DNA of 64,000 nucleotides, taken from the NCBI GenBank assembly GCA_964016885.1, contig OZ024753.1, forward strand, positions 2,790,001 through 2,854,000. The letters are read 5' to 3'. Below, piece after piece: positions 8,270-63,647 of the stretch (its first letter is position 1; each line of letters begins with the position of its first letter). The DNA is from Eledone cirrhosa (Eukaryota). The position numbers and the translations under genes are program-made. A model generated the notes under the pieces. The model worked only from the letters and a program-made list of their open reading frames with translations, was not told where the DNA came from and ran no database searches.

Positions 8270-8679
8270 TATATAAATATATATATATACATATATACAC
8301 ACGTGTATATTTACATTTATATATATATACATTTATATATACACATATATATACATATATATATACACATATATACACACGTGTATATATACATTTATAT
8401 ATATACATATATATATACACAAATATATACATTTATATATAAACATATATATACATATATATATACACATATATATACACGTATATATACATTTATATAT
8501 ATATATTTATACATTTATATATATATATTTATACATTTATATATATATATTTATACATGTGTATGTATATATATATATACACATATACATATATATATAC
8601 ACATATATACATATATATACACACGTGTATATATACATATATATATATATATACATATATACATATATATATACATACA

Positions 8680-8722
<43 letters not shown>

Positions 8723-8880
8723 GTGTATATATATATATACATAAACAAAACATATACACACATATATACACACACATGTATATATTCATCTATGCATACA
8801 AATAAAAATACTTTTCAAGACATACATGTATATGTGCATACACACAGATATTTCCACACATACTCATGTACATACTGACA
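8270..8880. repeat. Compound (TA)n/(CA)n microsatellite
   Basis: Direct inspection. Confidence 0.95.
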
Positions 8881-10572: not shown

Positions 10573-11116
10573 CCCTTGCAAGCAGGGAAAAGCGGACGTA
10601 ATATGATGATATATATATATATATATGTATATATGTATATATATATATGTATAGAGAGAGAGAGAGAGGTTTATCCGAGAGAGGGAGGGACATTATGTGA
10701 AAGTAAGTGTTTATATACATGTGCATGCAGTAATTGGGAAGGAATTCTTCACCTTTTCTTTGACTTGTTGCAAATTACAACATGGTGGTTAGTTAATGGA
10801 ATCAATCAAACACGTTTCATCTACAATTATAGAAATGTCTACCATTTCACTAAATTCTATTATTTAATCAACACAGCACCATCTATCTTTCTCTCCACCT
10901 CTCTCATTCTCATATATGTATATATATATAGTAATAATAATAAATTTGAAGACTAAAATCCAAAGAGGGCTCGATAAGGATAAATATATATCAAATATAT
11001 AAGAACACACATATACTTACACACATCATATGTAAATATGCATAAACATATATATGTGTATATAAATCAATGTTAAAACAGATGTTATGATTACATAATC
11101 ATATTTATCATATAAC

Positions 11117-36464: not shown

Positions 36465-36808
36465 TTTATATATATCCATGCTAGCGTGGAAGATAGACAT
36501 TAAACGATGATGATGATATATACATCACACATATATATATACATACATACACATATATAGATAGATATATACATATACACATACATATATACACATACAT
36601 CTACACACACACATATATATATACATATACACATATATATATACATATACACATATATATATATACATATACACATATATATTACATACCCATATATATT
36701 ACATATTTATATATATATATATATATATATATCATCATCATCATTTTACGCCCACTTTTCCCTGCTTGCAAGGGTGGGACGATATATATATATTATATAT
36801 ATATATAT

Positions 36809-37348
36809 ATAAAATATTAAACAAATAATGAACAAACAATTCCTTATATTAAATAAAAAAAGTTCACTATTTAACGATCGTTTCTAGGGCATATATGTGT
36901 TATAATTGGTATGCATATTTAACAGATCTATGTACAAAATTATACAAAATTATACAAATTATCAAGATTAAATATACATACCTAACTCATATATACGCCG
37001 TCTTCAGAAATATTTCTGAAGACGGCGTATATATGAGTTAGGTATGTATATTTAATCTTGATAATTTGTATAATTTTGTATAATTTTGTACATAGATCTG
37101 TTAAATATGCATACCAATTATAACACATATATGCCCTAGAAACGATCGTTAAATAGTGAACTTTTTTTATTTAATATAAGGAATTGTTTGTTCATTATTT
37201 GTTTAATATTTTATCTTGACTCTGTATACCGTTTATCTTTCACCGAAAGTGGATTTTCATTACATCTCTTCTTTCCATGATATCCGAAATACATTGAGTT
37301 CTTCATACGGATTGGACACTACCGTAAACTCTTGGTAGATTTATCTAC
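36809..37348 (+). mobile_element. (TA)n-flanked PLE-like non-coding element with a perfect 406-bp palindrome (36809-37214)
   Basis: 203-bp arms, no spacer, centre 37011/37012; unique ~135-bp extension on the right; (TA)n on both sides; contains a hammerhead motif. Confidence 0.65.
37011..37155 (+). ncRNA. Hammerhead ribozyme with ~100-nt loop II; exact mirror copy on minus strand at 36868-37012
   Basis: TATTT-CTGAAGA(37016-37022)-c-ggcgtatat...atatatgcc-cta-GAAA(37139-37142)-C-GATC-G-TT-AAATA; palindromic GATC tetraloop III; the base of stem II is imperfect. Confidence 0.6.
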
Positions 37349-37927
37349 ATATATATATATATATGGATATTATATATATAGGGAGAGAGAGAAAGAGAGA
37401 AAGAGAGAAAGGATGGACCATGTATACTCCTATTCTTAATGAAAATATATTTTATATATTATTTTTATCTTTGTACGAAAGTTATTTTAGGTGTATAACA
37501 CCCCAGGGAGAACATAGAACATGAATTCATTAATTAATTTTTATATCAGAATATATTTCTAGCTTTTGTCTAAAATAACTATGGGGTTATTGGGGTTAGA
37601 AAACAATTGCTGCTTGTTTTAAAAGAGAGCTTGAAATATTCCCATATAGAATTAATTAATTCATATAATGTGTAATGTAATTTTCCACATGCAATAATTG
37701 GCAAATCTACATGACCAGATGGATATTAACAAATACAACAGTCTAATCGAGTGGATGTACATGGTTCTAACTGTGCTGAAGTGGTATGGGACCTTACTGA
37801 GTTAAAGGCCTTATTTATTGAGTTGTCAGCAGCCCAGCATCTTCTCTCTAGGGTTTTATACCCATACAATAAATATATTGTTACATAGATTTATATAAAT
37901 ATATGTGTATATATATATATATATATA

Positions 37928-38110
37928 ATGAAGGAAATGTGGTAAGGAACCAGGTGGACCATAACGCACCAAAGTACTCAATACTTAGGGTAGTAGAGTG
38001 GCTAATAGGAACAAGTAAGACCCCGACGGCTGAGCTCAAGCCGTTTCGACCGCTAATTCAGAATTAGCCGTCGAAACGGCTTGAGCTCAGCCGTCGGGGT
38101 CTTACTTGTT

Positions 38111-38115
<5 letters not shown>
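37928..38115 (-). mobile_element. (TA)n-flanked element with a 111-bp fold-back (38005-38115) and the 3' half of a hammerhead
   Basis: 55-bp arms, 1-nt loop at 38060, one C.C mismatch; carries GAAAC-GGCT-TGAGCTC-AGCC-GTC-GGGGT (stem III, GUC site, stem I'). Confidence 0.6.
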
Positions 38116-38145
<30 letters not shown>

Positions 38146-38151
<6 letters not shown>

Positions 38152-38604
38152 ATGCTTTGGGAGGGTCATGTTGCCAATAAGAAACACACGCACCAGTTGC
38201 TTTCACTTCAATTTATTATAAATTAAATTTATAAATTTCCGGTTGGTTCGTTGGTTCCACAACCAGACGATTGTTCATACCCCATCTTGTTTTTGCACAA
38301 GATGGGGTAGGACAGAACAAAGGAGAGAAACAAAGAAAAGAATCCCCACTCACTGAAGAGGTCAAAGAATGTGAGACGAAAAAACTTTGACAATATATGA
38401 ACAATCGTCTGGTTGTGGAACCAACGAACCAACCGGAAATTTATAAATTCCTAAATTTATAAATTTAATTTATAATAAATTGAAGTGAAAGCAACTGGTG
38501 CGTGTGTTTCTTATTGGCAACATGACCCTCCCAAAGCATAACAATATCGGTTTCAACACACGTTTTCAGATAAAGAATCTTGCTAAACAAATTGAGAAAC
38601 GAAA
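38146..38604 (+). mobile_element. (TA)n-flanked element with ~135-bp inverted arms and a ~115-bp spacer
   Basis: Arms about 38146-38279 and 38395-38547, with a short insertion in the right arm; the spacer has the hairpin taccccatcttgt/acaagatggggta and a CTGAAGA motif; unique 3' extension. Confidence 0.6.
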
Positions 38605-38619
38605 TATATATATATATAT

Positions 38620-38935
38620 ATAATATAAGATCAAAAGATGGTTAAAAGAGTTCCATGTATTTTATTATGCGCATTTCAAAAACAAATATCATCATGAGAT
38701 GACATTTGCGTTTTTGTCAGATAAAATAGGGAGACATGATATGAAGGTTAAAAAGCACTTGTGAATAGTGCAGTTTTAAATCAACATATTGAAAATGTGC
38801 GTAATAAAATACATGGAACTCTTTTAACCATCTTTTGATCTTATATTATTTATACTCCAGTCCCACAAACTGTAGAGTGCTACTTATCCGATATCTGCAT
38901 TGCTTTATTGTACTACAATAAAACTCACCTCCTAC
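38620..38935. mobile_element. (TA)n-flanked element with ~60-bp inverted arms and a hammerhead
   Basis: Arms 38620-38679 and 38789-38849; hammerhead at 38658-38728 on the minus strand; unique right extension. Confidence 0.6.
38658..38728 (-). ncRNA. Minimal type I hammerhead ribozyme with a G8>A core change
   Basis: Minus strand: tattttat-CTGACAA-aaacgcaaatgtcatc(tcat)gatgatatttgttttt-GAAA-T-GCGC-A-TA-ataaaata. 8-bp stem I, long stem II, palindromic GCGC loop. Confidence 0.65.
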
Positions 38936-39020
38936 ATATATATATATATAAGTTAACGTGATATCGTTTAAGGTAATCCAACTAGCTGGCCACGTTATTC
39001 TTCACTCTTTTACTATATAC

Positions 39021-39053
<33 letters not shown>

Positions 39054-39275
39054 GTAATAATAATAAATTTGAAGACTAAAATCCAAAGAGGGCTCGATAA
39101 GGATAAATATATATCAAATATATAAGAACCGTAGAGCAAAAATTTATTAAAATAACAGATTAAAGAATCGCTGCTTTCACTCTTAATGGGATCTTCTGAA
39201 ACTATTTCAGAAGATCCTGTTAAGGGTGAAAGCAGCGATTCTTTGCTTAAACTTGAATCTGTTATTTTAATAAAT
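39054..39275 (-). mobile_element. (TA)n-flanked element with imperfect fold-back 39142-39275
   Basis: Arms centred on 39203; the terminal 76 bp (39054-39129) are identical to 10931-11006, which also abuts (TA)n. Confidence 0.55.
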
Positions 39276-39324
39276 ATATATATTTATATATCATCATCAT
39301 CATCGTTTTTCTCTTTGTTTTCAT

Positions 39325-61753: not shown

Positions 61754-63647
61754 ATGGAGGCCTTAAAGGATGCAGTGTCTCGACAGCTAACAACTGATGC
61801 AGGTAGTTTGTTCCATGGAGGCCTTAAAGGATGCAGTGTCTTGACAGCTAACAACTGATGCAGGTAGTTTGTTCCATGGAGGCCTTAAAGGATGCAGTGT
61901 CTTGACAGCTAACAACTGATGCAGGTAGTTTGTTCCATGGAGGCCTTAAAGGATGCAGTGTCTTGACAGCTAACAACTGATGCAGGTAGTTTGTTCCATG
62001 GAGGCCTTAAAGGATGCAGTGTCTTGACAGCTAACAACTGATGCAGGTAGTTTGTTCCATGGAGGCCTTAAAGGATGCAGTGTCTTGACAGCTAACAACT
62101 GATGCAGGTAGTTTGTTCCATGGAGGCCTTAAAGGATGCAGTGTCTTGACAGCTAACAACTGATGCAGGTAGTTTGTTCCATGGAGGCCTTAAAGGATGC
62201 AGTGTCTTGACAGCTAACAACTGATGCAGGTAGTTTGTTCCATGGAGGCCTTAAAGGATGCAGTGTCTTGACAGCTAACAACTGATGCAGGTAGTTTGTT
62301 CCATGGAGGCCTTAAAGGATGCAGTGTCTTGACAGCTAACAACTGATGCAGGTAGTTTGTTCCATGGAGGCCTTAAAGGATGCAGTGTCTTGACAGCTAA
62401 CAACTGATGCAGGTAGTTTGTTCCATGGAGGCCTTAAAGGATGCAGTGTCTTGACAGCTAACAACTGATGCAGGTAGTTTGTTCCATGGAGGCCTTAAAG
62501 GATGCAGTGTCTTGACAGCTAACAACTGATGCAGGTAGTTTGTTCCATGGAGGCCTTAAAGGATGCAGTGTCTTGACAGCTAACAACTGATGCAGGTAGT
62601 TTGTTCCATGGAGGCCTTAAAGGATGCAGTGTCTTGACAGCTAACAACTGATGCAGGTAGTTTGTTCCATGGAGGCCTTAAAGGATGCAGTGTCTTGACA
62701 GCTAACAACTGATGCAGGTAGTTTGTTCCATGGAGGCCTTAAAGGATGCAGTGTCTTGACAGCTAACAACTGATGCAGGTAGTTTGTTCCATGGAGGCCT
62801 TAAAGGATGCAGTGTCTTGACAGCTAACAACTGATGCAGGTAGTTTGTTCCATGGAGGCCTTAAAGGATGCAGTGTCTTGACAGCTAACAACTGATGCAG
62901 GTAATTTGTTCCATGGAGGCCTTAAAGGATGCAGTGTCTTGACAGCTAACAACTGATGCAGGTAGTTTGTTCCATGGAGGCCTTAAAGGATGCAGTGTCT
63001 CGACAGCTAACAACTGATGCAGGTAGTTTGTTCCATGGAGGCCTTAAAGGATGCAGTGTCTCGACAGCTAACAACTGATGCAGGTAGTTTGTTCCATGGA
63101 GGCCTTAAAGGATGCAGTGTCTTGACAGCTAACAACTGATGCAGGTAGTTTGTTCCATGGAGGCCTTAAAGGATGCAGTGTCTCGACAGCTAACAACTGA
63201 TGCAGGTAGTTTGTTCCATGGAGGCCTTAAAGGATGCAGTATCTTGGCAGCTAACAACTGATGCAGGTAGTTTGTTCCATGGAGGCCTTAAAGGATGCAG
63301 TGTCTTGACAGCTAACAACTGATGCAGGTAGTTTGTTCCATGGAGGCCTTAAAGGATGCAGTGTCTTGACAGCTAACAACTGATGCAGGTAGTTTGTTCC
63401 ATGGAGGCCTTAAAGGATGCAGTGTCTTGACAGCTAACAACTGATGCAGGTAGTTTGTTCCATGGAGGCCTTAAAGGATGCAGTGTCTTGACAGCTAACA
63501 ACTGATGCAGGTAGTTTGTTCCATGGAGGCCTTAAAGGATGCAGTATCTTGACAGCTAACAACTGATGCAGGTAATTTGTTCCATGGAGGCCTTAAAGGA
63601 TGCAGTGTCTCGACAGCTAACAACTGATGCAGGTAGTTTGTTCCATG
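61754..63647. repeat. 61-bp minisatellite, ~31 near-identical copies, inside a CR1-like LINE 3' end (whole element about 61597-63656, minus strand)
   Basis: Unit atggaggccttaaaggatgcagtgtcttgacagctaacaactgatgcaggtagtttgttcc shifts 1 nt per 60-nt line; a single-copy equivalent lies at about 27905-27966. Confidence 0.95.

Follow-up and report, generated by a model that had tools for sequence, protein, structure and literature searches.

Fold-back insertions beside and within a (TA)n array

The window, by which we mean the whole 64,000-nt stretch of Eledone cirrhosa DNA analysed here, belongs to a 3.0-Gb genome that is rich in microsatellites. Between positions 36809 and 39275 it carries the five fold-back elements bounded by (TA)n that an initial annotation had picked out, here called E1 to E5 (Table 1); the inverted repeats were found where they had been placed, with TA runs on both sides of each element, and blastn (word size 7) returned only TA- or AT-rich scraps common to the five, in agreement with the view that they have no evident sequence in common. 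The inverted repeat is 203 nt long, perfect and without a spacer in E1 (36809-37214), 55 nt at 98% identity in E2 (38005-38115), 95 plus 54 nt in E3 (38144-38547) and 62 nt at 95% identity in E4 (38615-38854); in E5 the identity is 79% across 39142-39275. Site T denotes the tail end, at which a direct arm stops, and site S the fixed 3' end upstream of it, at which an inverted arm stops.

The picture of a stack of five stands for E2 to E5 and needs amending on two counts: E1 is set apart by a single-copy spacer, and a sixth insert (E6), whose two pieces do not overlap on the template, had been overlooked, so that the true stack is E2-E3-E4-E6-E5. The arms of E4 have also been reassigned, the inverted arm (38615-38795) being the longer. 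Read depth on the spacer was 9-46 against 1e5-3e6 on the elements (one DNA read run), and one contig covers 37419-37885 of the spacer without differences; the exact arrangement rests on the assembly, since no read or contig spans the locus.

Table 1. Features of the locus (positions within the window)
Feature	Position	Strand	Description
E1	36809-37348		Fold-back between TA runs
E1 inverted arm	36809-37011	-	Ends at site S against (TA)n
E1 type I hammerhead	37011-37155	+	Canonical core, 116-nt stem II, palindromic stem III, predicted GUU site
E1 direct arm	37012-37348	+	pLTR and tail (37215-37348); ends at site T
E1 bulged hairpin	37219-37299	+	ACTC/GAGT stem, 2-nt bulge; right behind site S
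Single-copy spacer	37381-37907	.	Outside the elements; from read depth
(TA)n target array	37908-39283	.	Tracts at 37908, 38113, 38604, 38936, 39021 and 39274; split by five insertions
E2	37928-38115		Fold-back between TA runs
E2 direct arm	37928-38059	-	Cut off within hammerhead stem II; tail 37928-38004
E2 bulged hairpin	37976-37999	-	Behind site S
E2 inverted arm	38061-38115	+	Ends at site S; contains hammerhead 3' half (38073-38099)
E3	38144-38604		Fold-back between TA runs
E3 inverted arm	38144-38279	-	Ends at site S
E3 direct arm	38297-38604	+	Degenerate hammerhead 38349-38391; tail 38548-38604; no bulged hairpin
E4	38615-38935		Fold-back between TA runs
E4 inverted arm	38615-38795	-	Longer of the two arms; full hammerhead 38658-38728
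E4 direct arm	38793-38935	+	Begins at hammerhead GAA; tail 38855-38935; hairpin 38854-38878
E6	38949-39013	.	About 35 nt of tail end (-) head to head with about 30 nt of site-S end (+)
E5	39054-39275		Fold-back between TA runs
E5 direct arm	39054-39204	-	Tail 39054-39141; hairpin 39092-39137; 11-nt deletion over hammerhead cut site
E5 inverted arm	39205-39275	+	Ends at site S; hammerhead 39203-39252 with U4>A core, without the deletion

Several other repeats were noted in the window. At 10931-11006 the window holds one more fragment of an E5 tail, which also ends in (TA)n, and a further, more decayed inverted repeat (8558-8858) adjoins a long (TA)n array. The short repeat at 36731-36781 and 39293-39322, with (ATC)n beside (TA)n, is present several times in the window and at many loci, and we read it as the end of another TA-associated family. 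Positions 61754-63647 hold 31 tandem copies of a 61-bp unit, which are 99% identical.

Hammerhead calls rest on motif and pairing scans; Rfam returned no hammerhead family at the gathering threshold or at E<=10, and only generic hairpin (miRNA) matches. Clear hammerhead parts had been proposed for three elements: the motif of E1 is complete, that of E2 is a 3' half only, and that of E4, on the minus strand, has all its parts but bears G8>A in the window copy. Of the two motifs described as partial or degenerate, that of E3 has degenerate stems and that of E5 a U4>A core. The E1 hammerhead is mirrored at 36868-37012 on the minus strand and has a fold z-score of -5.2 against shuffles; the window motifs of E2, E3 and E5 fold no better than shuffles. 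At the level of families, the core is canonical in E1, E3 and E4 and carries U4>A family-wide in E5 (41 E5 arms), and a U3-A8 core was read in the intact E2 copies inspected, on which this reading rests, a regex for E2 core variants having given no match. PMC4209133 already describes U3-A8 cores, as well as dual motifs on opposite strands. The pLTRs bear the type I hammerhead motif, putatively self-cleaving, by which Penelope-like elements (PLEs) are recognized.

The idea that the 5' ends of copies coincide with the hammerhead cut site was ruled out, as the ends cluster elsewhere: at the core or up to 70 nt upstream of it in E1, E3, E4 and E5, and in loop II in E2. Ends away from the cut site fit uncut RNA as the template (PMC11167929). 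A recurrent 11-nt deletion between two CTTT repeats was seen in E5 direct arms only (window 39142-39204 and loci L130-L133); it removes the hammerhead cut site, and a jump of the reverse transcriptase (RT) across cleaved RNA is a speculative explanation. Strong sub-threshold matches to miRNA precursor models fall at 36968-37055 and 38014-38106, and the fold-backs, if transcribed, would form long dsRNA hairpins.

Coding parents, clade and abundance

Genome-wide searches gave 859-2375 candidates per element, 40 of which were scored for each. In each of the five families, longer copies continue into open reading frames for RT/GIY-YIG, which upholds the Penelope-like origin put forward in the initial annotation; together with subfamily variants that are the same in both arms, it contradicts the non-autonomous, retrozyme-like status proposed there. 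The inverted, 5'-truncated copies and the multi-copy families with fixed ends that had been anticipated were seen across loci. Coding parents were sought for E1 to E5, and the six inserts are almost certainly 5'-truncated PLE ends, four of them of the Hydra clade, one Nematis/Neptune-like and one (E6) unassigned.

The long copies of E1 form tandem units of 6.1 kb with an ORF of 813 aa, whose product has RWR, DKT, YRDD, CxCX5C, CxxC and CxH and lacks CCHH; all scored E1 RT matches (134/134) are stop-free and 99-100% identical. The C-terminus of the E1 protein matches GIY-YIG clusters in the Atlas (hits at 0.96-0.97), Pfam gave no significant match to the PLE proteins, and 116 homologues are without names, save for one mis-named host protein. 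The parent of E2 is a 3.5-kb tandem unit with an open ORF and Hydra-clade motifs including RWR, and that of E4 a 3.9-kb tandem unit, also with an open ORF and Hydra-clade motifs but with RWT for RWK; over the RT, both ORFs are 46-49% identical to the E1 protein. Since their ends are 93% (E2) and 90% (E4) identical to the family references, these coding units represent sister subfamilies of the window copies. Decayed Hydra-type ORFs lie upstream of E5, with fragments 42-46% identical to the E1 protein.

Upstream of E3, ORFs for a different RT and for an endonuclease (EN) were found in pieces at all three loci examined, and no intact ORF was recovered. The EN of this parent has a CX4CxxC linker, CCHH-type residues and a Cys inside the GIY-YIG core; the linker, these residues and the lack of a tblastn match to the E1 protein led us to reject E3 as a member of the Hydra clade. 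Its CxxC-to-GIY spacing is short and, by eye, like that of the Nematis rows of Fig. S2, and by spacing and motifs the parent is probably Nematis/Neptune-like: PLEs of that kind share with E3 a C-terminal GIY-YIG, the CX4CxxC linker, CCHH-type Cys/His residues, a simple-repeat target and a hammerhead. The Hydra clade is defined, in PMC8557442, by an RWK-type motif, DKT, a CxCX5C linker, CxxC and CxH, and the absence of CCHH; from these motifs, and by-eye agreement with the Hydra-1_Obim rows, E1, E2 and E4 are assigned to it, as is E5 through the likeness of its ORF fragments to the E1 protein. As in EN+ PLEs generally, a single predicted ORF joins RT to a C-terminal GIY-YIG in E1, E2 and E4 (decayed in E5, fragmentary in E3), and tandem or partial-tandem pLTRs, an inverted 5'-truncated copy and a one-sided tail are observed.

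Two further observations concern the coding copies. The 3' UTR of an E1 parent (L031:4233-7400) extends over 3.2 kb and is rich in TA/CA/TG microsatellite-like sequence, so that E1 spreads its own kind of target when moving. A further Hydra-type ORF, open over 636 aa and 42-47% identical to the E1 protein, lies at L217:6092-7999.

A sample of 60 evenly spaced 10-kb stretches (600 kb) held 58 E1-E5 insertions at >=80% identity (54 under another merging rule) and 1028 TA tracts; ends of these families are present at about 1 per 10 kb, or roughly 290,000 per genome. Another family was found within 80 nt at 28 of the 203 family-selected loci and at 4 of the 58 random loci, the expected neighbour rate being 1.2% under uniform placement and about 6% per tract. 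As a rough inference from about 0.07 per side, a genome should hold a few chains of five. Because the families are abundant and neighbours in one TA tract are common, the stack is an extreme of shared targeting: the proposed targeting of (TA)n by several families stands, and the term hotspot is an overstatement when 28/203 loci have a close neighbour. The stack itself is ordinary, and the interest lies in a mechanism that can be tested.

Fixed ends, paired arms and bulged hairpins

The arms of these insertions end at exactly two positions, T or S, in 167 of 234 cases, site S lying 57-137 nt upstream of T; the sample was drawn from loci not chosen for the family, with a few window copies included. 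In the same 234 arms (unselected loci, E3 included), TA stands at the 3' flank in 169 and at the 5' flank in 25. Insertion into (TA)n, a mark of the Hydra clade, is thus seen here, and the expectation that copies end at the same base next to (TA)n is borne out at two fixed positions. Raw reads from another study likewise show (TA)n at site-S ends (2661 reads at 38005 and 2119 at 38547). At 7 of 8 sites with a known continuation (E1-E5), the end overlaps the target by 3-5 nt of TA, depending on the variant in E5, and at site T of E4 by 2 nt only; as background, 21% of random cut sites have >=3 nt of TA ambiguity.

Arms that are joined head to head combine one end of each kind. Among 63 such pairs at unselected loci, the window excluded, 42 are S+T, none is T+T or S+S, and 21 have one unclassifiable end; over all loci, the 194 pairs comprise 159 S+T, 5 T+T, 1 S+S and 29 unclassifiable. 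The arms are symmetric in 23 of 46 unselected S+T pairs (four being those of the window), and in 18 of the 46 the S arm either extends further 5' than the T arm or does not overlap it. Some S arms stand alone: at least 7 of 35 unpaired ones have (TA)n directly on both sides. Where an E5 pair carries the 11-nt deletion in its direct arm, the inverted arm is without it (5/5).

Subfamily variants were found in both arms in 16/17, 16/17 and 9/10 cases in E2 and in 9/9 and 9/9 in E4, the expectation across E2 and E4 being 1.5-4.4; in E5 none of 20 was common to both arms. Most C>T/G>A changes are confined to one arm. Junctions vary within one E2 subfamily and among E1 copies at 99% identity, and this variation, with variants mirrored in both arms, indicates that each short insertion is remade from parent RNA and not inherited as a unit.

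In five families overall, the ends are followed at a distance of 4-9 nt by a bulged hairpin. Its stem (RCTC...GAGY, interrupted by a 2-nt bulge) begins 4-7 nt past site S in E1, E2, E4, E5 and E6, and a hairpin of the same pattern follows site T in E1; 6 of the 7 sites first examined had one. E3 has two fixed ends but no such hairpin. The shuffle values at the S sites (0-5 per 1000) are post hoc, since the pattern was defined by eye on these same sequences. A forward test was applied to site T of E2 and E4, with a query that asked only for RCTC within 9 nt after T: it gave 321 (E2) and 267 (E4) matches, against 0 in reversed controls, and nearly all of the matches listed represent one continuation. 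The bulge and the closing GAGC, which the query had not asked for, were present at 18/20 (E2) and 15/20 (E4) loci. By eye, the same hairpin can also be made out close to the 3' end of the Hydra-2_Amil consensus as published. Judged from its position, the hairpin may tell the enzyme where to start; no description of twin hairpins or of strict S+T pairing was found in the open-access literature.

Probable twin priming and competing explanations

How the tandem and inverted structures of PLEs form, and how microsatellites are targeted, is named as an open task in PMC8557442. That paper already gives the (TA)n target, hammerheads, inverted copies and tails of Hydra elements, and its supplement includes Hydra-1_Obim from a cephalopod, (TA)n targets and, for Penelope-13_HM, an inverted copy; fold-back and tandem architecture is textbook for PLEs (PMC8969392). 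The Hydra-clade elements in PMC8557442 (Hydra-1_Obim, Hydra-2_Amil, Penelope-13_HM) share with those found here RW(K/R), DKT, CxCX5C and CxxC/CxH around E/N without CCHH, as well as a type I hammerhead (often with a GUU/AUA-type site), the (TA)n target, 5'-truncated inverted copies and a one-sided tail. The present families differ from what is given there in their units of 3.5, 3.9 and 6.1 kb (published, "generally <3 kb"), tails of 57-137 nt (published, 30-40), a stem II of up to 116 nt, the U3-A8 (E2) and U4>A (E5) cores and their abundance of roughly 290,000 end fragments; the hairpins and the strict S+T pairing are not described there. The hammerheads all differ from that of Hydra-1_Obim.

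We consider twin priming the probable origin of the insertions, with cDNA synthesis begun at two fixed points within the element RNA. The GIY-YIG domain would nick both strands of (TA)n, one nick priming reverse transcription at T and the other at S, 57-137 nt upstream, with 2-5 nt of TA pairing helping the priming and with binding of the hairpin by the RT, 4-9 nt downstream, positioning the start. Each cDNA would be extended in the 5' direction of the RNA, past a hammerhead that is still uncut, until the RNA ended or structure halted it, and the two would be joined head to head; (TA)n would be left on both sides of each insertion, so that other families could land alongside.

In LINE-1 twin priming, each strand of the target primes one cDNA and the two are then joined head to head, the second primer landing at variable sites and the pieces barely overlapping; here, unlike in L1, neither site varies and one arm is often a duplicate of the other. 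Another analogue is the Poseidon element PAc of Anolis carolinensis, for which both target strands are cut and extended in vitro and the tail is flanked by two internal positions at which reverse transcription begins (PMC11167929). A model with one cDNA primed at S and one at T, on opposite strands, would fit all cases here and, by analogy, agree with PAc, which shares the two internal starts flanking the tail, the use of both strands, an AT-rich target and an uncut RNA template (PMC11167929). Unlike the strict S+T pairing and the TA overlap seen here, the start sites of PAc in vitro did not differ between strands, and no homology to the target was seen (PMC11167929).

The main rival is self-priming, in which a single cDNA (or antisense RNA) would serve as its own template after folding back, with the endonuclease or a microhomology terminating the copy at S and the unevenness of the arms arising from deletions afterwards. 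It was proposed for the inverted junction in PMC3846280, and "EN-mediated resolution" of the tail is suggested in PMC8557442. Self-priming directly explains the pairing of one end of each kind and the variants common to both arms, and half of the pairs are symmetric (23/46, as fold-back predicts), some with perfect axes. Twin priming has to accommodate these symmetric pairs, the 5 T+T pairs, the two ends of E3 that lack a hairpin and the absence of common subfamily variants in E5 (0/20); later deletion at the palindrome centre could also create asymmetry. We nevertheless favour twin priming, because the S arm holds sequence missing from the T arm in 18/46 pairs, solo S arms lie within (TA)n, the E5 deletion is restricted to direct arms (5/5) and the halves of E6 do not overlap; the matching hairpin behind both sites is a further point against self-priming, which we hold to be rather unlikely.

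That the short fold-backs are non-autonomous families, retrozyme- or SINE-like, with both arms copied whole by PLE proteins in trans, has been largely refuted and now seems very improbable. One E4 junction does recur in most of 30 copies, although the query contained that junction, and short copies far outnumber long ones. Against this, the junction changes from copy to copy within one E2 subfamily, as it does among E1 copies that are 99% identical; the two arms mirror each other's variants, short units were not found in tandem arrays, and all five families (E1-E5) run into ORFs. Treating E4 and E2 as fixed-length non-autonomous elements was likewise rejected, since junction-containing queries had misled and unbiased queries show longer copies. 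Metazoan non-LTR retrozymes resemble the present copies in being short and non-coding, with a type I hammerhead related to PLE pLTRs; in 10.64898/2026.07.22.740005 they are tandem repeats with a hammerhead per unit, whereas those here are single truncated ends of coding elements, and with a contiguous coding parent at hand we rejected the class for them. The least credible reading, with hardly any probability left to it, is that of MITEs with terminal inverted repeats and TA duplications, or of an assembly artefact of fold-back reads: the perfect 406-bp palindrome and the lack of any record spanning the locus speak for it, but the repeats are one-sided and variable in length, the parents encode RT and GIY-YIG, another study's raw reads show (TA)n at the site-S ends (38005, 38547), and the evenly spaced stretches, 600 kb in all, hold 19 pairs of this kind. 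The arms are of variable length and some are unpaired, and the tail is one-sided, which rules out the fixed-length, symmetric terminal inverted repeats of MITEs.

The RTs of PLEs are the sister group of telomerase. We give about even chances to a more specific proposal, that in Hydra-clade PLEs the paired hairpins (RCTC stem, 2-nt bulge, GAGY) would act like a telomerase template-boundary element, a dimeric RT-endonuclease binding both, priming one cDNA per (TA)n strand through a few TA base pairs and joining the two head to head. Hundreds of natural insertion products in this genome can tell the models apart, and a short RNA motif to mutate, together with young elements whose ORFs are open (the E1 RT alone has at least 134 near-identical copies), suits an in vitro system. 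For annotation, about 1 such end per 10 kb would otherwise be mislabelled as a MITE or a miRNA hairpin, of which the false Rfam matches are an example. If true, the hairpin rule would account for the tail, for the inverted pLTR and for the many short solo ends, and the self-priming model would give way to it.
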